Of a stretch of DNA of 64,000 nt, positions 5,673-31,073 are shown in pieces. The notes under the pieces are model-generated. The model saw only the letters and a list, made by a program, of their open reading frames with translations. It searched no databases and was not told where the DNA came from. This DNA comes from Candidatus Heimdallarchaeota archaeon (lineage in GTDB: Archaea > Asgardarchaeota > Heimdallarchaeia > JABLTI01), in the NCBI GenBank assembly GCA_018238155.1, contig JABCTZ010000036.1, forward strand, positions 128,001-192,000, read 5' to 3'. A program made the translations under genes and the position numbers. The first letter of the stretch is position 1; every line of letters starts with the position of its first letter.

Positions 5673-7106
5673 TTATTCTTTTGCAGATTCTATCCATTCT
5701 CCAACTTCTTCTAAATTAGGAATCAAGTTGCTTCTTTTCAGAAATTTTTTCACATGTTTATCTTTGATAGCGACTTGCACTGTTTTCCAAAGTTTACTTT
5801 GTTTCTGTTTCTTAAGATCTGCTTTGGTACGAATGCCTGCACTATAGAGAATCACCACATCATGCACACGTAATCTCCAAATTTCAAGCATTAGATTAGT
5901 TTCGATAATCATTCGTGAAATATCTTCGACTTTGAGCTGATTATAATTTAGTTTCTCCTGTAGCAGATTGACTATTTCATCTGGAGTTGTAACCAATAAA
6001 TCCAGCACTTTGTTGATTCCTATCTTTTTAAATTTGTCAGCAATTGCTTTTGTCATTTCAGCAACGTCACTGATATCTGAATTCAAAGTGATAGCTGGAG
6101 TGAATCTGGATTTTTTAGGGAATTTTAATTTTGGTTTAGCTTCAATAATTACTACTTTTTTCTCTGTCTTCAATGGGATTGCTTTAAGAGACTTTGGTAA
6201 ATTGACGGGTTTAATTTTTCCATCTTGGAGAACTTGCAAATAATATCTATCATCTTGCAAGAGAGAATTTTGTACTCTTTTTGTTTTGTAAAATTCATTT
6301 TTCATTTGTTTTGTTGTTCTCTTGCGCATTTTCTTTTCTTGGTTTTGTCGATTTCTTTCTGCTTGTGCAGATAATTTTATTCTTGATTTCGTTGAACCAA
6401 GTTTAATTTTACCTGGATCAGGATTTCCTGCTTCAGCTATTGCTTTGAGATATAGTGAAGCTGTTCCTTGAATTGCCGAAGCAATTCTTTGAGAAATCTT
6501 TGTTTTTAAGACATCATTGTATCCTTTTCCCCAATTACATTTTTGACCTTGTTCAAGGTCATAATTTTCTATCACAAAAACATACGAGTTATTCGCTTCA
6601 TTTGCAGCTTTTATAACAAAATCTTTGATTTTATTTATTTGTTCTGGAGGATTAATTACCATGTCTTTTCGTAAATCTAAGTAAATTTCTGCCGCTCCCC
6701 ATTCTGTGAAAGAATGGATTAGTCCTTCTTCTTCTGTTTGACCAGTGTGTAATGGATGATTAATATCCGCAAAATAATGACTCATGACTCCTGCAGCATA
6801 AACAGCTTTCTCCCATTTTTTATTCTTTAATGCAGATACGGTTTTATTAAACCAATCATAAACCGCTTTTGGTGCCCCACCCCATTTTTCCGGCATATAT
6901 AAAACATGGTTTTTGTAATCTTTAAAAAATTCATCTGGTGCTGTTGATCCTTCCAAAAGCCTTTCATAATATTTTAGAAAAAGGTTAGCTATATTTTCTT
7001 CTAGAAATTTTACTGCTTCAATAGCAACTCGGTGATGAATACTTCGAGTAGTACGATTTTCAAAAATTAAGTTAAATATTTTCTCATCCATGTAATCACT
7101 ATCCAA
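5673..7106 (-). CDS. Zn-dependent phospholipase C / S1-P1-like domain fused to C-terminal HhH (DUF4332-like) domains
   Basis: SIHH, GSTAPD, SHYFADINHPLHT, HSFTE Zn ligands; C-terminal IADKFKKIGINKVLDLL and LYSAGIRTKADL HhH-like repeats. Confidence 0.75.
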   Translation of the reverse strand: MDSDYMDEKIFNLIFENRTTRSIHHRVAIEAVKFLEENIANLFLKYYERLLEGSTAPDEFFKDYKNHVLYMPEKWGGAPKAVYDWFNKTVSALKNKKWEKAVYAAGVMSHYFADINHPLHTGQTEEEGLIHSFTEWGAAEIYLDLRKDMVINPPEQINKIKDFVIKAANEANNSYVFVIENYDLEQGQKCNWGKGYNDVLKTKISQRIASAIQGTASLYLKAIAEAGNPDPGKIKLGSTKSRIKLSAQAERNRQNQEKKMRKRTTKQMKNEFYKTKRVQNSLLQDDRYYLQVLQDGKIKPVNLPKSLKAIPLKTEKKVVIIEAKPKLKFPKKSRFTPAITLNSDISDVAEMTKAIADKFKKIGINKVLDLLVTTPDEIVNLLQEKLNYNQLKVEDISRMIIETNLMLEIWRLRVHDVVILYSAGIRTKADLKKQKQSKLWKTVQVAIKDKHVKKFLKRSNLIPNLEEVGEWIESAKE

Positions 7107-21060: not shown

Positions 21061-21672
21061 TTGAATTTATTGATGAAAGATAGTGATACATATGATAAAT
21101 TATTTGCCGAATTAGGTAACCGCGATATAAAAGATCGCTCAAATGCAATTGATGTTTTAGCTTCAATGAAAAATGAAGAAATTATCACTCATTTGGTTTC
21201 TCTTCTCAGAGAAAATTCCTCACGAATTATACGTGAAGGTGCATGTAAGACTCTTGGAAAAATTGCTGATACACAAGCTACTGATCCTCTCATTTTAGCA
21301 CTCGATGATTCTGAAGAAAGTGTACGGTATCAAGCTGCAATTGCTTTGGGACAAATTGGTGATAGGAAGGCTGTCAATTCACTATTAAGAATTCTGAAAC
21401 AAAAAGACGATCCACTCGTTAGATCTGAAGCGGCAAAAGCACTCGGTTTAATTGGTGATCCTAGCGCTCTTAAAATACTTTTGAATATTCTCCGGAAAGA
21501 AGAAGATCGATTTCTTAAATATCATGTAGTAACTTCATTGGGACGTATTGGTGAACCAAAAGCTAAGAAAGCTCTTGAAAAAATAATCAAAGATGAATCT
21601 GATGATAGATTGATTTTGCGTTCAAGAGAAGCACTAGAAAAAATTACTGGCGGTAATATTGTAGCTGGATAA
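21061..21672 (+). CDS. HEAT/PBS-lyase repeat protein
   Basis: Repeats VRYQAAIALGQIGD, VRSEAAKALGLIGD; ATG 21073 is an alternative start. Confidence 0.9.
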   Translation: MNLLMKDSDTYDKLFAELGNRDIKDRSNAIDVLASMKNEEIITHLVSLLRENSSRIIREGACKTLGKIADTQATDPLILALDDSEESVRYQAAIALGQIGDRKAVNSLLRILKQKDDPLVRSEAAKALGLIGDPSALKILLNILRKEEDRFLKYHVVTSLGRIGEPKAKKALEKIIKDESDDRLILRSREALEKITGGNIVAG

Positions 21673-22984: not shown

Positions 22985-23350
22985 GTGAATGAAATTAATA
23001 ACTTTAACTCAATTTTAAAGTTAAGTGTAACTGAGAACCATAAACTGCTTTACATTAATTTACCAAAGGAGCTTATACAAACGCTGAATTTGACCGAAAA
23101 TGATTTACTTGAATATGATATTAGAGGTAAACAGTTCTATTGTCGGAAAAAAGGTTCAGAAGCAATGCTACGAAATACAAGTAACAATCTCTTTGCTGGT
23201 TTAAAAGTTGAACGAACTATAACACGGAATAATACTATTCTACGAACGAATCTTCCGAAAGAAGTAGCTCAACCATTAGCTATTACGAAAGGAGATGTGG
23301 TTGAAATCTCTTTAGAGAAGAAAGTAATAATCGGAAAAAAAATTTACTAA
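22985..23350 (+). CDS. Tandem AbrB/MazE-like DNA-binding protein
   Basis: Two repeats: INLPKELIQTLNLTENDLLEY and TNLPKEVAQPLAITKGDVVEI. Confidence 0.75.
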   Translation: MNEINNFNSILKLSVTENHKLLYINLPKELIQTLNLTENDLLEYDIRGKQFYCRKKGSEAMLRNTSNNLFAGLKVERTITRNNTILRTNLPKEVAQPLAITKGDVVEISLEKKVIIGKKIY

Positions 23351-23377: not shown

Positions 23378-26077
23378 TTGCGAATACGAAACCGAATTAT
23401 GGTTACATTCATTGTTTTGTTGATTCTTCCATCGGTAGTAATGATTACTATTTCTAGTAGTCGAATAAGTTTACTATCAAAGGAGAATGCCAATGACTCA
23501 TCCGCTGCTCTTTTAAAGGAAGAGTTAGAACATCTTGATCGATTGTCTTCAGATGCGTCTCAGAAAATTAATGAGTTGTTTAACCAAATCGTTGCAGAAG
23601 TAACGATGCTTGACAATTATACAGAACGACTTTTCAATGGTGATATTCCCATTGATTCTTATCAATCATATTGGTGGGATTCAGCTTTAGAATTCTCAGA
23701 AACAGGACGAACAATACCTGGCATTGGGTATAATGCTGATTATGATTCTGACATCTCATTTGATACAAGTTGTTATTACATTCCAAGAGATAAACTCACT
23801 AATTTACCTGGATCTGACCCACACGCTTGGACACCAGAATTAAAAACTCTCTTGGATAATTCCTCAAATATGGATATTGTTTTTAAGAATCTTCACGAAG
23901 CAAATCCTAATTATATTTGGATTTACGCTGCTTTTGCTGATTCAGATTATTCTTTATTTAGAAATTATCCATATGATACGATGATTTGGACTCAAGAAGA
24001 TGAAGACGGTAATCCAGTTCCTGCTGCTGATGACTGGGACCCTCTTGAACAAGATTGGTATCAAAATGCTGCTTCTATCGCTGATAATAGAACGGCTTTC
24101 ACTGCTCCATATTTTGACCCCGTAGGATTGATTCTCTCAGTGGGACGTCCAGTGAGATTTACTAATGGAACTCTCTTTGGAGTAGTTAGTGTGGACATTA
24201 TGATTCAGACTATGCAACAAGATATTCTTGATCTTGATGTTAGCACAAATGGTTATGCTTTTCTTATTGATAGCAATGGTGATACTATTACACACCCTGA
24301 TTTAGTTGATGATTTTGTATCAATTGAAGAGTTAGAAATGTCTGATGCAACAAATAGTGAACAAACTGCTTTTACAACTATTATCAACGATATGAAGTCT
24401 GGAGAAGCTGATATTGCTGATTTCACAAAAAATGGCGATAAATGGTACATCTCTTATCAATCAATAGATGCTGCAGGTTATTCCTTAGCATTGATAGTTC
24501 CTGAAGCAGATATTGTAGAACCGATAGAAGAATTAAGAGCTGAAATCCTTCGAAGAAGTACAAATAACATACTAATTTCTGTTGGATTATTGATTCTTGC
24601 TCTAGCCTTGATTATTTTTGTTTCAGTAAGTGTTTCACGAAGAACAGTACAACCTATAGAAGATTTCATTGATTTAACTGAAAGAATTGCTAAAGGTGAT
24701 TTATCTCGAGACCTCGATGATGATGAAACGATTCCAAGAGAAATTCGTGGTTTGCATGAAGCGCTTGATGGGCTATTAACTGCCTTGCGATTTGGGAATT
24801 CGGACTATTATGGTGGAAATCTTGATTTAGCATACAACAACTATCTGAAAGCTCTCAAACTATTTGAAACAACTAAGGATGATGCCGGTATTGGTGTTTG
24901 TTTGAATAACCTTGGAAATGTTTATCGAGAATGGGGCGAAATGGATCAAGCCAAAGATTTCTATGCAAAAGCTATCACTGTTGCAGAAAAACTCAACGAT
25001 AAGGCCAGTTTAGCTTCAAGATACAATAATTTTGGTTTAACCTTATTAGATGTTGGTAACGTTGAAGAAGCACAAAAATATCTTGAAAAAGCATTAACTC
25101 TAAATGAGAGTTTAGGAAATATTCGTGGAAGAGTTCTTTGTTTGAATAATCTTGGTTTAGCACACTTTAAGAAAGGCTCAATAAAACTTGCATACGGTTT
25201 CTATGAAGATGCCTTAAAACTAGCCGAAGAAGATGATTTCCTAAGAGGAGCAGCACATAGTCAACTAAATCTTGCTGTTTTCTATCTAGAACAATTTGAT
25301 GTTCTAACCGCTAAAGAATACTTCAAGAAAGCCCTAGAAAGTTCTCAAATGGTAAATGACGTTCTCCTCGAAGAAGAAGTTTTACAACGATTCCAATTAA
25401 TTGAGAACGAACTCGGTGAAGATGCAACTGAAGAACAAATTAAGGATACATTGGCAAGATTGCGAGGTTCTGCTTCTCCACAAAAAACTGTGCAATATGT
25501 TCTTGACTACAGTGGTTCAATGAGTGGTTCACGTAGCAGAGCTTCAATTAGAGGTTCTCTTGACCTTCTAAAGACCGCTCTAAAAGACAAAGACACTGTT
25601 GGTATTATTACATTCTTTACTCAAAGTCACACTATTATGAACTTTACACAAGTAAGGAATAATCGTCAACACATTCAACAAACGTTTAAACGTTTAACTA
25701 GACCAAATGGCAATACTGCTATGTGGGATGCTATAATTGATGGCATTGAGAATTTGTCTCAAGTGGGTGGAACACAAAGATGGTTGGTGTTGTTAACAGA
25801 TGGAGAAGATAACTCCAGTAAAAAAACTGCTACTGATGTGAAGCGCATCATTAAGAAGTTGAAATATCAATTGAATTTAGTAATTATTAGTGTTGGAAAC
25901 ATCGGAAATGATGAATTGGAACTAATGGACTTTACTAAAACGCTTAATGGTACTTTCATCAAAGTTGATGATACTAAGAATGTTCACAAAGCAATTGAAA
26001 AAGCATTCAAGACCGTTGGACAATTGATGTCTCAAGCACAAGTATCAGTCGAAGGACTGGTATTGGATGATTTGTGA
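23378..26077 (+). CDS. Membrane receptor: TM-dCache-TM-HAMP-TPR-vWA
   Basis: Two TMs; WY..FTAPYFD..GVVSVD and GYAFLID..G..ITHP (dCache_1); PI..TERIAKGDL..E (HAMP); LNNLG TPRs; DYSGS/T/LTDG MIDAS. Confidence 0.88.
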   Translation: MRIRNRIMVTFIVLLILPSVVMITISSSRISLLSKENANDSSAALLKEELEHLDRLSSDASQKINELFNQIVAEVTMLDNYTERLFNGDIPIDSYQSYWWDSALEFSETGRTIPGIGYNADYDSDISFDTSCYYIPRDKLTNLPGSDPHAWTPELKTLLDNSSNMDIVFKNLHEANPNYIWIYAAFADSDYSLFRNYPYDTMIWTQEDEDGNPVPAADDWDPLEQDWYQNAASIADNRTAFTAPYFDPVGLILSVGRPVRFTNGTLFGVVSVDIMIQTMQQDILDLDVSTNGYAFLIDSNGDTITHPDLVDDFVSIEELEMSDATNSEQTAFTTIINDMKSGEADIADFTKNGDKWYISYQSIDAAGYSLALIVPEADIVEPIEELRAEILRRSTNNILISVGLLILALALIIFVSVSVSRRTVQPIEDFIDLTERIAKGDLSRDLDDDETIPREIRGLHEALDGLLTALRFGNSDYYGGNLDLAYNNYLKALKLFETTKDDAGIGVCLNNLGNVYREWGEMDQAKDFYAKAITVAEKLNDKASLASRYNNFGLTLLDVGNVEEAQKYLEKALTLNESLGNIRGRVLCLNNLGLAHFKKGSIKLAYGFYEDALKLAEEDDFLRGAAHSQLNLAVFYLEQFDVLTAKEYFKKALESSQMVNDVLLEEEVLQRFQLIENELGEDATEEQIKDTLARLRGSASPQKTVQYVLDYSGSMSGSRSRASIRGSLDLLKTALKDKDTVGIITFFTQSHTIMNFTQVRNNRQHIQQTFKRLTRPNGNTAMWDAIIDGIENLSQVGGTQRWLVLLTDGEDNSSKKTATDVKRIIKKLKYQLNLVIISVGNIGNDELELMDFTKTLNGTFIKVDDTKNVHKAIEKAFKTVGQLMSQAQVSVEGLVLDDL

Positions 26078-26089
26078 GGTTGTGAAAAG

Positions 26090-27580
26090 ATGACTATAAC
26101 CGACTTTTTCAAAAGAAGAAGCATTAGAACAAATATAATGGTAAGCTTTTTCCTATTGTCCATCCTCTTCATGGGTGGAATTGGTGGTATCTCTCACCTA
26201 CTTGTACAACGATCTGGTGATCAAACGATTACAGACAGTACAGCCGCATTAGAGGAACAAATAACTGCAAACATTGCAATTACTGCAGAGAAAAATGCAG
26301 AAATCATCAACGAGAAACTTTCTAGTGCACAAGCAATGGTAGACTTTTTGGCAAGTGAATTGGAATATGTTTTCAGTGATGAAAATCGATATGGTGATCG
26401 CGATGTTTACTATGACCTTTGGTTTGATAATACAACTTCGTTACATTCAACACATTCACCCATTGATACTCATTGGGATAGTGATTATCAAGTAGATCTT
26501 AGCTGGGACTATTCAAGCTATTATTACTCCCACTCTGATGCCGCTGACTATGATACCTTGACACTAAAACAAAATCAAACTTTGGAAACAGTAGCAAATA
26601 TGGATTATGCATTCCAAAATGTTCATGATAATGCCCCCGATTTTAGATGGTTATACATTGTTCTGCCATTTGATGGAGCAGGAATTGATTTGTTTATCAA
26701 TTATCCAGGGAGTTGTGTTGCAGGAACAGATGCTGAAAGACTCGCTGAACCTTGGATTCCAAGCGAAACCGAAGATTGGTATACAGAAGTTCTTGCAGGT
26801 GATGGTGACATTGTTTTCACTGAGCCATATTTTGATCCAATTGATGGTATTCCTTTGATTACAATCGGACGTAGTGTAAGCTTCTCAAATGGTACATTAA
26901 TCGGTGTTATTTTTGGAGATATCTCGATTGAAACAATGGTTGACAAAATCTTAGCTGTTACAGTATTAGAGACTGGTTACGCTTCTTTAGTTACAAGTAG
27001 CGGCTCAGTTGTTGCCCATCCTGAATTGATAATTGAGGAAGGAGAAGATGAATACCCAGACATCTCTAATGTAGAGGCAAATAGTGACAGCACTTCTGCT
27101 CTCACAAGTGCCCAATTAACTGCAATCTTTTCCGGTGTTTCTGGACTACTACGTTATACACGAGATGCTCAAGAGAGATTTCTTGCTTATCATCCTGTTG
27201 GCAAAGGGAACTACATTAGCCTCATTATCTTGCCTGTTGATGAAGCATTAGCTGGCATTGAACCTGTTGAGGAAAGAATGACTGCTGCAGTTGCTAGTAC
27301 AACAACGATTATTTGGATAATTGCTGGAGCGAGTTTAGCTATTGGCATAGCTATTGGTTTAACTCTTACAGCCTATATCACTAAACCATTTAATCATCTG
27401 ATAGAGGTTGCTCGTTCTCTCTCAACAAGGAGAGCGCGAAGAGACATCATGGACGGACTTATGACAGCAATTGATCCTAAATTGCTTGAAAGCGAAGATG
27501 AATTAGGAGAACTTACTCGAGCATTCAAAGGAATGATAGATTCTGTTCAACAAGCGGAGCTAGAGAAGAATGATGATTAA
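26090..27580 (+). CDS. Membrane receptor: TM-dCache-TM-HAMP with no output domain
   Basis: WY..FTEPYFD..GVIFGD, GYASLV..G.VVAHP; ITKPF..EDELGELTRAF HAMP, then stop. Confidence 0.88.
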   Translation: MTITDFFKRRSIRTNIMVSFFLLSILFMGGIGGISHLLVQRSGDQTITDSTAALEEQITANIAITAEKNAEIINEKLSSAQAMVDFLASELEYVFSDENRYGDRDVYYDLWFDNTTSLHSTHSPIDTHWDSDYQVDLSWDYSSYYYSHSDAADYDTLTLKQNQTLETVANMDYAFQNVHDNAPDFRWLYIVLPFDGAGIDLFINYPGSCVAGTDAERLAEPWIPSETEDWYTEVLAGDGDIVFTEPYFDPIDGIPLITIGRSVSFSNGTLIGVIFGDISIETMVDKILAVTVLETGYASLVTSSGSVVAHPELIIEEGEDEYPDISNVEANSDSTSALTSAQLTAIFSGVSGLLRYTRDAQERFLAYHPVGKGNYISLIILPVDEALAGIEPVEERMTAAVASTTTIIWIIAGASLAIGIAIGLTLTAYITKPFNHLIEVARSLSTRRARRDIMDGLMTAIDPKLLESEDELGELTRAFKGMIDSVQQAELEKNDD

Positions 27581-27617: not shown

Positions 27618-29441
27618 ATGACATGGACATTAGAAGACAGTAAACTGATTTATTACGCAAATCGAAACGATTTTTCATATCTCGATATAAATGCTAAAGG
27701 ACAGCTTGAACTGATAATTGATGAAAAAAGTATTTCCTTCCAAGATATAGTGAAGATGGTTCATAAAAAAACTAAATATAAGAAAACTTCCTTTGCAATA
27801 CGAGTTCCTCAATTAATAACAAAACAGATTCAAAAATTAATTCAATCTTTTGATACTGCCATTATAAAATATGATTACGTTGGAAATTATTTTCCTATCT
27901 ATCCGATTAAAGTTAATTCACAAAGATTAATTATTGAATCTATTATTAAATCCCATCCAACATATTCTTTTGAAGCCGGAACCAAATCAGAATTCATTTT
28001 ATTACTGCATGCACTTGAGACTGAAAAGCATCGATTAATTATGTGTAATGGCGGAAAAGACCCGGAATATTTACGCTCAATTAATCAAGCTATAAAAGAT
28101 GGTTATAGTGTGTGTATTTCAATTGAAACAATTCTTGAGATGAAGGATACACTCAAAATTATTGATGAAGAGAATGTTCAATTGGCTTTAAGAATAAAAC
28201 CTTATGTTGCAATGCACGGTCATTGGGGTGAATCTAGTGGACGTCATTCCAAATTTGGTTTGTCTATTGCTGAAATGCTTGAAGTAGTGAAAATTCTCAA
28301 ACAGAAAAAGAAATCAAAATTAGTAACTATGTTGCATGCTCATCCGGGATCACAAGTAACTACTCTCCCTGATTTCTATCCATTTGCTGAATTCATGGCA
28401 AATACTTTCAAGAAATTACATAGTCTTGGCCTTACCTCTCTAGATACAATTAATTTTGGAGGCGGTTTGCCTATAGACTATGATAATAGTCTTGACCCAA
28501 ATTTTATGGAGAAATACGCTCAGATTCTTGTAGAACAATTAGTAAAATTCCTTCCTGATTTTCAACCAAATATTTCAACAGAATCTGGGAGAGCAATAAC
28601 TGCTACTTCAACTATGATAATGGTGAAAGTGATTGAGAAATATGCTATTTTTCCTGAAAAAGAACCAAAACAAAAACTCCTTGATAATTTTCAACAACGT
28701 TTTGATCGTTTATCGCAAGTTCAAAGTATAGAACAGATTATTGAGAATTGGTTTGATTGGGATAGAAAATCTGGACAGTTAATTGATCCCGACAAACTAT
28801 TAGCCTTTGAATTTTTATCCTTTAAATTGAAAAAAAATCTCAGAATGAAATTCTATGACTTTTCAGGCTATAGCAATTACTTAGAAAATGAAACTATTAG
28901 GTCATTGCTGATGCCTGAATTTACACTCCAAGGAAATTTCTCTGTTTTCAATAGTATAGCTGATTATGTACTTGTTCACCAATATTTTCCGGTAATACCA
29001 ATTAGTGATTTACATGAGCAACCTGAAACAATTGCTCGATTATTTGATATAACATGTGATAGCGATGGAAAGGTTGCTACATATCATACCATTCAATCCA
29101 CGAAGAAATTATTCACCAAAGATGACTTTCTTTTGACCTATCCTGAACAAAAAATTCTTAATGGATTTCCAATCGGTAGCCTCAGAAATATTGTAGGTGG
29201 TTATTTACTCATTCCTCTTGCAGGAGCGTATCAGGACATCATTGAATTCAATCATAACCTCTTGGGTGATTTACCTGATATTCTTGTTGGATTTGATGAA
29301 GGAGATTGGCATGTTGAACTTATTAATGGAGCTCAATCAATAAGCGATCTTCTAGCTGAGGTTGGTTTTATTTCTACAGTCACTGACGATCCATATATGG
29401 ATCAAGATGACGATGAAGACGAGAAAGAAATACTAGAATAA
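27618..29441 (+). CDS. speA: Biosynthetic arginine decarboxylase (fold III PLP)
   Basis: YPIKVN, FEAGTKSE, CNGGKD, SKFGL, HAHPGSQ, TESGRA, NFSVF.S..D, DITCDSDGK, GAYQ. Confidence 0.88.
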   Translation: MTWTLEDSKLIYYANRNDFSYLDINAKGQLELIIDEKSISFQDIVKMVHKKTKYKKTSFAIRVPQLITKQIQKLIQSFDTAIIKYDYVGNYFPIYPIKVNSQRLIIESIIKSHPTYSFEAGTKSEFILLLHALETEKHRLIMCNGGKDPEYLRSINQAIKDGYSVCISIETILEMKDTLKIIDEENVQLALRIKPYVAMHGHWGESSGRHSKFGLSIAEMLEVVKILKQKKKSKLVTMLHAHPGSQVTTLPDFYPFAEFMANTFKKLHSLGLTSLDTINFGGGLPIDYDNSLDPNFMEKYAQILVEQLVKFLPDFQPNISTESGRAITATSTMIMVKVIEKYAIFPEKEPKQKLLDNFQQRFDRLSQVQSIEQIIENWFDWDRKSGQLIDPDKLLAFEFLSFKLKKNLRMKFYDFSGYSNYLENETIRSLLMPEFTLQGNFSVFNSIADYVLVHQYFPVIPISDLHEQPETIARLFDITCDSDGKVATYHTIQSTKKLFTKDDFLLTYPEQKILNGFPIGSLRNIVGGYLLIPLAGAYQDIIEFNHNLLGDLPDILVGFDEGDWHVELINGAQSISDLLAEVGFISTVTDDPYMDQDDDEDEKEILE

Positions 29442-29633: not shown

Positions 29634-31073
29634 TTGAGATTTATGAGTAAAGAAAATCCTTTCTTGGAAATAAAAGAAAATACTCTTCATTTTGATAGAG
29701 TAAATTTACTTCGAAGTGTAGCTGCTAATTTTGGTACACCAACATATGTTTTTAGTGAAAATATAATCAAGCAAAATCTGCTGAATTTGCAAACAGCTTT
29801 TACTTCGCAATATCCCCAAACTGAAATTGCATATTCAATTAAAAACAACATGATTATTGATTTCTCCTCGATTATTGCTGATGAAATCAATTACTTCGAA
29901 ACAACATCGTTAACAGAACTACTTCTGGTTGAAAAGTTAGCCCAACAAAAGAATAAACCTCTTAATTTAATTTCAACAAATTTGTTTAAACCTGATGGTT
30001 TAATTGAACACATAATTGATTTTGGCAATCAAATTACTCGAGAGAAAAAAAATTTGCAAATGAGTGGCATAATTGCAATTGATTCATATCAAGATATGAA
30101 AAATATTGAACGTGTAGCCAAGAATGCAAACAAAAAAGCAAAAGTTTTAGTTCGAGTAAACCCAGGAATTCAGATGTCTCGTGAAAAAACGATTTTTGCA
30201 TCAGCTTATCCCGATGCTAAATGTTCTACTATCATTAAAGACATTCAACCAATAATTGATCTAAGCCAGAATGAAACAATCGAAGAGTGGCTTTTAAAAA
30301 GAAAGCATTCACCTAAATATGATTTTGCAGAAAGAATAATTCAAGAAGCAGAAAAAAGTGAGCATTTAGAATTATTAGGTATTCACGGGCACCTTGGTAG
30401 TCAGGTTACAAATATCGATTATTTCCATCACTTCTTTGAAGTAATTACTCTATTTTACAAACTAATGGAAGAAAAATTAGGAAGAAATCTCTCATTTCTT
30501 GATTTAGGTGGAGGATATCCTGTTCAGTATTCTATAAAAGAATGTGTCCCTTCAATTGAAGAAATAGCTGTTAGCTTGTCTCAAAAGATCTCTCAAGCAA
30601 AAATAACTCCTCACTTAATAATTGAAAGCGGTCGATTTGTAACTGCTAGTAGTGGTTTATTGCTCTCAAAAGTTACTCTTACAAAAGAGAATCCCTCAGG
30701 AGGAAAAATTGCCGTGCTTGATATGTCTGTTTATAGTGATCTATTAGACGTCATTGCAGCCAAATGGAATTTCGATATCTCTTTAGTCAATGATTTACCT
30801 GAACGAAAAGACGAAACCAAAGAATATTCTTGGGATTTGGTCGGTGCTACAAATGATACTTTAGATCAATTGAATCCAATCAATTATCCAGATAACCCAA
30901 ACATTGACCAGCGTTCTTTTCCTCGTGATTTAAAACCAAATGATTATATTGTTATTACAAATGCCGGTGCTTATACAACCTGCTTTAATTCCAATTATTG
31001 TGGGCGACCAAAACCGATGATTGTTCTAATTGAAAAAGATAAGAATATTCGTTTAATAAATCGTAATTATTGA
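29634..31073 (+). CDS. Fold III PLP decarboxylase (LysA/ODC family), divergent
   Basis: FGTPTYV, YSIKNN (PLP Lys), VRVNPG, HGHLGSQ, DLGGG, ESGRF, AGAY; GATNDTLD in place of GPxC(D/E)xxD. Confidence 0.82.
   Translation: MRFMSKENPFLEIKENTLHFDRVNLLRSVAANFGTPTYVFSENIIKQNLLNLQTAFTSQYPQTEIAYSIKNNMIIDFSSIIADEINYFETTSLTELLLVEKLAQQKNKPLNLISTNLFKPDGLIEHIIDFGNQITREKKNLQMSGIIAIDSYQDMKNIERVAKNANKKAKVLVRVNPGIQMSREKTIFASAYPDAKCSTIIKDIQPIIDLSQNETIEEWLLKRKHSPKYDFAERIIQEAEKSEHLELLGIHGHLGSQVTNIDYFHHFFEVITLFYKLMEEKLGRNLSFLDLGGGYPVQYSIKECVPSIEEIAVSLSQKISQAKITPHLIIESGRFVTASSGLLLSKVTLTKENPSGGKIAVLDMSVYSDLLDVIAAKWNFDISLVNDLPERKDETKEYSWDLVGATNDTLDQLNPINYPDNPNIDQRSFPRDLKPNDYIVITNAGAYTTCFNSNYCGRPKPMIVLIEKDKNIRLINRNY

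Follow-up and report, generated by a model that had tools for sequence, protein, structure and literature searches.

What does a transmembrane sensor signal through when its cytoplasmic part carries no enzyme? No type of extracellular sensor is commoner in prokaryotes than the Cache-HAMP receptors, and the question is raised by one of them, which is encoded in a 64,000-nt stretch of an Asgard archaeal genome (Candidatus Heimdallarchaeota archaeon, GenBank assembly GCA_018238155.1, contig JABCTZ010000036.1, positions 128,001 to 192,000 of the forward strand), hereafter called the window. A first-pass annotation of the gene, which we refer to as A, had described a receptor with a double Cache (dCache) ectodomain, in which HAMP leads directly into tetratricopeptide repeats (TPRs) and a von Willebrand factor A (vWA) domain, and had proposed that it belongs to an unusual class that transmits its signal purely by protein–protein interaction. 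Our analysis indicates that A is a Cache-HAMP receptor with an undescribed scaffold output, that it forms a conserved pair with a paralogous gene, B, and that the pair is probably tied to the polyamine metabolism of Asgard archaea. The paralogue without an output domain, the linked SpeA-type arginine decarboxylase, which makes agmatine, and the homologues outside Asgard archaea are the most important context of A and had no place in the first-pass annotation.

Architecture of receptor A

The translation of gene A is uninterrupted from a TTG start codon, which has a GGAG sequence 9 nt 5' of it, and homologues start at the same position (features are collected in Table 1). Hydropathy analysis indicated two transmembrane (TM) segments, with basic flanking residues at the N-terminal side and following TM2, which places the Cache region outside the cell and the HAMP-TPR-vWA part in the cytoplasm. 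The ectodomain, which has TM segments on both sides, was identified as dCache_1 by Pfam (PF02743, residues 200–371, E 8e-15, 55.5 bits against a cut-off of 45) and was matched by Foldseek to PctA, Mlp24 and 3LIB. The Pfam match to HAMP (PF00672, residues 419–448, E 3e-3) spans AS1, and its score of 18.3 bits lies under the cut-off of 25; the region was recognized as HAMP by its hallmark residues, namely P426, IAKGDL and E455, and by the helix-loop-helix that was modelled for residues 419–470. Pfam also matched TPR_12, TPR_1 and TPR_8 to residues 468 to about 660 (E 5e-24 to 4e-18) and VWA to residues 708–873 (E 4e-14). No kinase, cyclase, GGDEF, PP2C or MCP domain was detected in A or B by Pfam and NCBIfam at E values up to 0.01, and NCBIfam gave only partial similarities for A, including weak ones to BatA and BatC.

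AlphaFold models were obtained for full-length A (pLDDT 78.5) and for the output module alone (pLDDT 81.5, pTM 0.61). TM2 was predicted to continue into HAMP AS1, followed by a poorly modelled connector, as expected when a dimeric HAMP is modelled as a monomer, and a single helix (residues 454–479) was predicted to hold AS2 and the LRFGN signature and to reach the TPR array. The array was modelled as ten helices (residues 482–678, corresponding to five repeats), with a linker helix and a canonical vWA fold after it, and the final 13–15 residues had a pLDDT of <50. The earlier description of a HAMP region that runs into about five LNNLG-type TPRs and a vWA domain with an intact MIDAS (metal ion-dependent adhesion site) was thus borne out by Pfam, by the ten modelled TPR helices and by five invariant MIDAS residues; likewise, the kinase, cyclase and MCP domains that it reported as missing were found neither in A, by Pfam and NCBIfam, nor in the family members described below.

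Conservation of the architecture in Asgard archaea

The same full-length architecture was found by a word-indexed search in about 70 protein clusters, with identities from 94% down to 31%, and the named clusters are nearly all from Heimdall-, Hod-, Thor- or Promethearchaeota. A was present in 55 of the 201 Asgard genomes sampled from the phylum of the window, and these 55 represent six families; for the Thor family, the count was 70 of 86 genomes. When the cytoplasmic half of A was used for an exhaustive HMMER search, generic TPR proteins dominated the result, and its informative part consisted of about 30 single-stretch, near-full-length matches among the best 150. Almost all of these proteins are 860–950 aa long and are matched from near residue 400 onwards, which indicates that, among the best 150 matches, the TPR-vWA output is essentially confined to this sensor. 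No enzymatic or MCP output was found in the about 70 clusters, in these about 30 matches or in the homologues from chytrids and giant-virus contigs.

The residues that could form the output surfaces are strictly conserved. In an alignment of 50 Asgard sequences of the A family with identities down to about 34%, P426 and E455 of HAMP, R471/G473/N474 of the LRFGN signature, the TPR Asn ladder N488/N511/N514/N551, and A876/F877 were invariant. The five MIDAS residues (D710, S712, S714, T780 and D808) were invariant in these 50 sequences and also in all nine sequences of the chytrid set, and, judged by these residues, the domain is a vWA domain with MIDAS. The V-E-G motif of the C-terminal tail is conserved from Asgard archaea to chytrids, where it reads VNVESL, and to giant-virus contigs, where it reads HVESL.

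We found no description of the A architecture in the literature on Asgard Cache proteins with vWA or TPR and on chytrid Cache proteins. Therefore, the refuting possibility named in the first-pass annotation, that this architecture is already common and characterised, does not hold: it is widespread, with about 70 clusters, but uncharacterised, as no published description was found.

Three further observations concern the extent of the family. In family f13, ORFs of about 577 aa match only residues about 398–895 of A and hence represent TM-HAMP-TPR-vWA without the Cache ectodomain (G113:C40:5710-7233 and G049:C11:45235-46758). Homologues of A and B on one 100,830-nt contig (P0005 and P0257, 75% and 69% identical to the window genes) are labelled 'candidate division Zixibacteria'; considering the rest of the family, the contig is most likely mis-binned Asgard DNA. 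The second-ranking ESM Atlas cluster comprises 135 proteins of about 1145 aa with MCP-like_PDC_1 (96%) and VWA_4 (78%) and no recorded taxonomy, and it may represent another type of Cache-vWA receptor.

An output predicted to act by protein–protein interaction

In Foldseek and VIA-align comparisons, the nearest folds to the TPR array of A were LGN/Pins, kinesin light chain (KLC), APPBP2, TSK and the RRNPP receptors, all of which are peptide-binding solenoids. In LNNLG-type TPRs, the Asn residues form the lining of a concave groove in which extended peptides are bound, and LGN inhibits itself through an intramolecular motif. LGN/Pins (GPSM2) and KLC have the closest folds, at 19–24% identity, and share LNNLG-type repeats with conserved Asn; unlike A, they are soluble eukaryotic scaffolds without a membrane sensor or vWA domain, and the homology may reflect only the TPR_12 type of repeat. 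For the vWA domain, many structures were tied in VIA-align with a Z of 20–23.5 and a root-mean-square deviation of 1.9–2.5 Å, including ITIH1, ArnB, integrin I domains, TFIIH p44, Rpn10 and Sec23/24, and the best PDB sequence matches were the CLCA1 vWA (E 9e-6) and then the archaeal ArnB (8S05; E 1.4e-5, Z 22.6). The strict conservation of the TPR Asn ladder and MIDAS, which are likely binding surfaces, makes an enzyme-free output by protein–protein interaction the best reading of the sequences and models. The proposal of a purely interaction-based receptor thus stands as the best-supported one, but the principle of signalling through interaction alone has a precedent, as MCPs likewise have a non-enzymatic scaffold output for cytoplasmic partners. 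What is new is the kind of output: in contrast to MCPs, A has no signalling hairpin, no che genes were found in the A neighbourhoods examined, and the scaffold consists of a TPR solenoid and a MIDAS vWA domain.

Several known systems share parts of this design. ArnA-ArnB of Sulfolobus, in which the cytoplasmic regulator ArnB is bound to the zinc finger of ArnA (8S05), likewise employs a cytoplasmic archaeal MIDAS vWA domain as a regulatory protein-binding module; unlike A, ArnB is soluble and has a beta-sandwich, a phosphorylated Thr-rich C-terminal domain, an FHA/zinc finger partner and Ser/Thr kinases. As only the vWA domain aligns and no FHA or kinase genes were found in the A neighbourhoods examined, A is not an ArnB-like regulator. 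The voltage-gated calcium-channel subunit alpha2delta and CACHD1 also combine dCache_1 with a MIDAS vWA domain, and the Cache region of A matched CACHD1 (E 1.7e-11) and alpha2delta-1 (E 2.6e-7) among PDB sequences, and in Foldseek too. In alpha2delta, vWA and Cache are both extracellular, with vWA before Cache. In A, by contrast, the vWA domain is C-terminal and cytoplasmic, after TM2-HAMP-TPR, with CLCA1, ArnB and BatA, not alpha2delta, as its best sequence matches, which places A outside this group. The BatA/BatB/BatC proteins of the Bat (Bacteroides aerotolerance) system also have vWA and TPR in membrane-associated proteins (BatB vWA, Z 18.7, 24% identity); unlike A, they are encoded in a MoxR/DUF58 operon, lack Cache and HAMP and have another domain order, and no MoxR is linked to A.

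The paralogous partner B

Gene B starts 12 nt 3' of the A stop codon, and its product is 28% identical to A over residues 3–470. Almost all genomes with A have a B-type gene of about 480–500 aa directly downstream of it, and the 92 matches of the B family are all from Asgard archaea. The A family is monophyletic with B as outgroup, which indicates that the A-B duplication predates the split of Thor and Heimdall. From these data, we infer that A and B form a heteromeric sensor.

In family f16, a B subfamily of 642–670 aa (P0276-P0282, G110:C25:974-2275 and G022:C120:2712-4022) carries C-terminal repeats of the HEAT/PBS-lyase type, which suggests a docking-type, non-enzymatic output on B too in that lineage. 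The window also encodes a free 203-aa HEAT_PBS protein (21061-21672, plus strand) 1.7 kb upstream of A, which is 37% identical to the HEAT region fused to B. We rejected a Rosetta-stone link between the two as non-specific because the same genome yields 32 similar HEAT_PBS matches.

The sensor pocket and its probable ligand

The bacterial dCache_1 receptors, such as PctA/PctB/PctC, Mlp24/Mlp37 and the Methanosarcina mazei histidine kinase sensor 3LIB, have the same two-TM topology, a double-PDC ectodomain and HAMP after TM2, and their pocket aromatics and amine-contacting Asp are kept in A; A differs from them in that TPR and vWA replace the MCP, kinase, cyclase or phosphatase output, in that the carboxylate-binding Arg is replaced, and in the pairing of A and B genes. 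By alignment to PctA and PctB, the pocket of A was mapped to W220, Q225, W227, Y228, Y245, D247 and D273. In PctA, R126 binds the ligand carboxylate (PMC10589655), and its position is Q225 in A of the window. Across the A family, this position is occupied by E in 29 sequences, F in eight, Q in six, Y in six and S in one, and across B by E in eight, D in eight and Q in one, so that neither R nor K occurs there (0/50 and 0/17, respectively), whereas PctA Y144 and the amine-contacting D173 have equivalents that do not vary in either A or B. Thus, neither A nor B has the dCache_1AA amino-acid motif (equivalents of R126, Y121, W128, Y144 and D173). For the amine-sensing motif, dCache_1AM, the comparison covered the positions shared between the two motifs, and these are present, namely two aromatics and the Asp that corresponds to PctD D235 and PctA D173. 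The full AM motif also includes an upstream insertion, with a salt bridge of the R103/D133 type, and sandwiching aromatics (W155 and F188 in PctD), and in a published survey Halobacteriota were the only archaea with AM domains.

The lack of the amino-acid motif, the more acidic pocket and the neighbouring SpeA and HDAC-family genes point to an amine or polyamine as the ligand. As judged from these sequences, it is probably a cationic amine without an alpha-carboxylate, for example agmatine, putrescine or another polyamine.

Linkage of A and B to SpeA

The ORFs from 19 A loci across families were clustered, and the recurrent module was c2–A–B–SpeA-type arginine decarboxylase. SpeA was present in 17 of these loci; it lay ≤3 kb from A in 33 of 44 genomes, with most of the others split across contigs. 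In the sample of 201 Asgard genomes, 47 had both A and SpeA, eight A only, ten SpeA only, and 136 had neither gene. Within families, the patchy distributions of A and SpeA match; in f4, for example, both are found in the same two of ten genomes. Their linkage is kept despite a change of orientation in two families. The SpeA of the window has intact PLP-Lys (YPIKVN), HPGSQ, ESGR and CDSDG motifs and matched the Campylobacter jejuni enzyme with an E of 1e-53.

In this Asgard clade, SpeA has an acidic xPY-hydrophobic motif at its C-terminal end, past the catalytic core. In genomes with A, 24 of 25 SpeAs carry the motif, compared with two of ten in genomes in which A was not found, and we regard it as a candidate ligand of A, that is, as a lead from sequence comparison. 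In two closed genomes in which A was not found, SpeA adjoins KaiC-like and 82-aa thioredoxin/KaiB-like genes. SpeA is duplicated in closed genomes of this kind, with a KaiC-like domain fused to the C-terminus of one copy (L042:6643-9267, G026; neighbours L042:4753-6267 and 6277-6525). The presence of SpeA beside or fused to KaiC-like regulators where A is missing suggests that the enzyme has repeatedly been coupled to regulatory modules.

The first gene of the module, c2, encodes a cytoplasmic protein of about 500 aa with an FG-GAP/PQQ-like beta-propeller and a CxxC..CxxC zinc ribbon, and at 14 of the 19 loci it is the gene directly upstream of A (e.g., L022:6513-8021). Its C-terminal region (about 170 aa) had no PDB or Pfam match, and no c2 homologue was found in the genome of the window, which is a metagenome-assembled genome (MAG) with 90.7% completeness and 5.9% estimated contamination. 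Among the PADLOC defence-system models, A matched generic TPR models only, and B and c2 had no match. An HDAC/acetylpolyamine-amidohydrolase-family gene lies divergently upstream in eight loci.

Other neighbours are more restricted. The AbrB/SpoVT-type protein of the window, which is conserved only in this genus, contains two similar NLPKE...-type halves and might bind DNA as a pseudo-dimer of the swapped-hairpin type. Also only in this genus (the window and L035), SpeA is followed by a second PLP decarboxylase of fold III (LysA/ODC-like, 479 aa; 29634-31073, plus strand). In one Asgard genome, a 115-aa ORF on the minus strand, 170 nt upstream of A (L036:11962-12306), has a RING-H2-like pattern, CxxC...CxNCH...H...CxxC.

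Table 1. Features of the A/B locus (nt positions in the window; residue numbers are those of the respective protein).
Feature	Position	Strand	Basis
AbrB/SpoVT-type 121-aa protein, 27 nt upstream of A; at that position only in this genus	22985..23350	+	Pfam, NCBIfam, neighbourhoods
Gene A, 899-aa receptor: TM1 - dCache_1 - TM2 - HAMP - 5 TPR - vWA(MIDAS) - conserved tail	23378..26077	+	ORF, domain and family data
TM1, residues about 8-30, with basic N-terminus RIRNR before it	23399..23467	+	Hydropathy
Extracellular dCache_1 double-PDC sensor, residues about 35-390	23480..24547	+	Pfam, PDB sequence alignment to PctA/PctB, Foldseek, column counts
TM2, residues about 396-418	24563..24631	+	Hydropathy; model helix 376-437 continuous
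HAMP: AS1 with P426 and IAKGDL, connector, AS2 from E455; Pfam sub-threshold	24632..24787	+	Pfam, NCBIfam, alignments
LRFGN signature at HAMP-TPR junction, inside one predicted helix from AS2 to TPR array	24785..24799	+	Alignments, models
TPR solenoid, five LNNLG-type repeats, helices 482-678	24800..25411	+	Pfam, alignments, model, structure comparison
Cytoplasmic vWA domain, residues 703-884	25484..26029	+	Pfam; VIA-align Z 20-23
MIDAS motif D710-Y-S712-G-S714 (with T780, D808)	25505..25519	+	Alignments
Conserved C-terminal tail with V-E-G motif (V891, E892, G893), predicted disordered	26030..26074	+	pLDDT <50; alignments
Gene B, 496-aa paralogue: TM - dCache_1 - TM - HAMP, ends just after AS2	26090..27580	+	Pfam, hydropathy, alignments
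SpeA-type biosynthetic arginine decarboxylase	27618..29441	+	Motifs, sequence match, linkage
SpeA acidic C-terminal motif DDPYM, residues 590-594, beyond catalytic core; candidate docking peptide	29385..29399	+	SpeA comparison

Homologues in chytrids and on giant-virus contigs

Full-length homologues of A were also found in the chytrids Podochytrium, Obelidium, Siphonaria, three Chytriomyces, Cladochytrium and Rhizophlyctis, in some cases on contigs as long as 1.1 Mb, and an IMG/VR search identified three giant-virus MAG contigs that encode full-length dCache-TPR-vWA proteins of 883–964 aa. On two of these three contigs, the gene directly upstream of the A-like one is B-like and encodes about 500 aa; the B-like product has 21% identity to B (E 2e-17), with 41% identity between the two copies. 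The chytrid sequences form a monophyletic clade that matches order-level groupings, and its sister is a metagenome protein, P0101, with 39% identity to one of the A-like proteins of the giant-virus contigs. The position of the chytrid/virus clade relative to the Thor and Heimdall/Hod clades was not settled by the tree, and, considering this trichotomy, a branch length of 2.1 and compositional bias, we claim no direction of transfer.

In all nine chytrid sequences, P426, RxGN, the Asn ladder, MIDAS and AF are kept, with E455 in eight (D in one) and the V-E tail also in eight. The chytrid pocket has Arg at the R126 position and lacks the D173 equivalent, and that of the virus-contig clade has the complete amino-acid motif. 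Judged by these residues, the output is fixed while the input is retuned by lineage. One chytrid protein, P0071 of Podochytrium sp. JEL0797 (1122 aa, annotated as 'Centrin-1'), combines a receptor homologue with a centrin; its similarity to the family stops precisely at the conserved tail, and it is therefore probably a gene-model fusion.

A model for the A/B system and its alternatives

The explanation that we favour, with a probability of roughly 60%, is that A and B constitute a heteromeric sensor of an amine or polyamine whose scaffold output binds or releases cytoplasmic partners, with SpeA as the most likely target. A would be the output-bearing subunit of this conserved two-gene transmembrane sensor and would assemble with B through HAMP and the TM helices. 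Binding of the ligand in the Cache pockets would send a signal through HAMP, from which the predicted continuous AS2 helix leads to the TPR array; the TPR groove and the MIDAS face could thereby be repositioned or unmasked to bind or release a partner in a pathway without phosphotransfer or a second messenger. If the target is the adjacent SpeA, possibly recognized by its acidic xPY-hydrophobic C-terminal tail, the result would be feedback on polyamine synthesis. The conserved, predicted disordered tail of A itself (V891-E892-G893) could serve as an intrinsic ligand. We consider doubtful the bolder version of this model, in which A/B is a previously unlisted receptor system common to Asgard archaea and eukaryotes that docks the SpeA tail directly in Asgard archaea, and possibly an ancestral eukaryote-type scaffold module spread by, or captured from, giant viruses.

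Several results weigh against the favoured explanation. With regard to the input, acidic pockets could bind other cations, the different pockets of the chytrid and giant-virus-contig proteins indicate that the ligand is not constant across the family, and the Pfam score of the HAMP region of A is under the cut-off. With regard to the target, c2-A-B is cleanly missing from two Thor genomes in which the SpeA and HDAC-family flanks are intact, and this presence or absence as a cassette between stable flanks suggests that part of the SpeA adjacency could be inherited synteny; in addition, four A-bearing genomes of family f13 have no SpeA. The association of the xPY tail with A was not significant by independent contrasts (six pairs, about 4.4 concordant and none opposite, p about 0.125), two genomes without A retain the tail, and one linked SpeA lacks it. 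Furthermore, several unlinked Thor SpeAs belong to a divergent clade, of which the second SpeA copy of G158 is also a member, which weakens the raw contrast in tail frequency given above.

Among the alternatives, the output could act in membrane-tethered control of transcription, with TPR-vWA holding or releasing a DNA-binding or zinc-finger regulator, which would be the AbrB-type protein in the window and c2 in most other lineages. We regard this as rather unlikely, although the second-best PDB sequence match of the vWA domain, ArnB, binds the ArnA zinc finger, the c2 zinc ribbon precedes A at most loci and is gained and lost with A-B as a cassette, and the AbrB/SpoVT-type gene occupies the slot of c2 in the window. 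The structural similarity to ArnB is, however, equalled by many other vWA domains; c2 has no recognised DNA-binding domain in its C-terminal region and no homologue found in the 90.7% complete genome of the window; and the AbrB gene occurs at that position only in this genus, the remaining lineages having unrelated or no small ORFs there. Less probable again is a self-assembling signalosome or array, in which the tail of one A subunit places its Glu into the MIDAS, or occupies the TPR groove, of that subunit or of a neighbour, so that the ligand switches autoinhibition or clustering and B modulates it. This can be likened to the intrinsic-ligand Glu of integrin alpha-I or to GoLoco-TPR autoinhibition of LGN, which is among the nearest TPR folds, including in its autoinhibited form (4jhr), and the tail is predicted to be disordered and yet conserved at V891, E892 and G893 from Asgard archaea to chytrids and giant-virus contigs. 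In Thor sequences, Gly takes the place of this Glu (10 of 33 sequences), though with E two residues upstream, and the arrangement need not compete with the favoured explanation, in which it could form the autoinhibition step.

vWA proteins often partner MoxR ATPases, and the vWA domain of A could accordingly be an adaptor of a MoxR AAA+ ATPase encoded elsewhere, through which the receptor would control chaperone-like remodelling. The three AAA_3 genes of the genome (G000:C3:86778, C17:91342 and C15:41435) and the weak NCBIfam similarity to BatA and BatC would allow this, but each of the three has its own DUF58 and/or vWA neighbour, and no MoxR (AAA_3) gene was present in the window, as noted at the outset, or in any of the 19 neighbourhoods, which makes such a partnership very improbable. 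Finally, the estimated contamination of the MAG and the sub-threshold HAMP might suggest a chimeric assembly or a decaying, non-functional receptor. This is refuted by the comparative data to the point of being negligible: the ORF is uninterrupted in dozens of independent assemblies, and its functional residues are invariant among sequences only 25–34% identical. Since the same continuous ORF occurs in 55 of the 201 Asgard genomes, the domain junction is not an assembly artefact, and the concern about misassembly expressed in the first-pass annotation is settled.

Implications

A survey of one sensor subtype recognized four receptor types, namely chemoreceptors, histidine kinases, cyclic-nucleotide enzymes and phosphatases (PMC10589655). 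The A family adds a fifth, enzyme-free output that is built from two eukaryote-style docking modules, and A/B is among the few dCache systems conserved across Asgard archaea, in which Cache domains have been thought to be rare. The invariance of the output residues from Asgard archaea to chytrids and giant-virus contigs defines a testable interaction surface and bears on the signalling parts that are common to eukaryotes and their archaeal relatives. The link to SpeA suggests a simple coupling of external amine levels to polyamine synthesis and, if SpeA is docked directly, this would be a receptor-to-enzyme pathway that operates without a kinase, second messenger or transcription factor.

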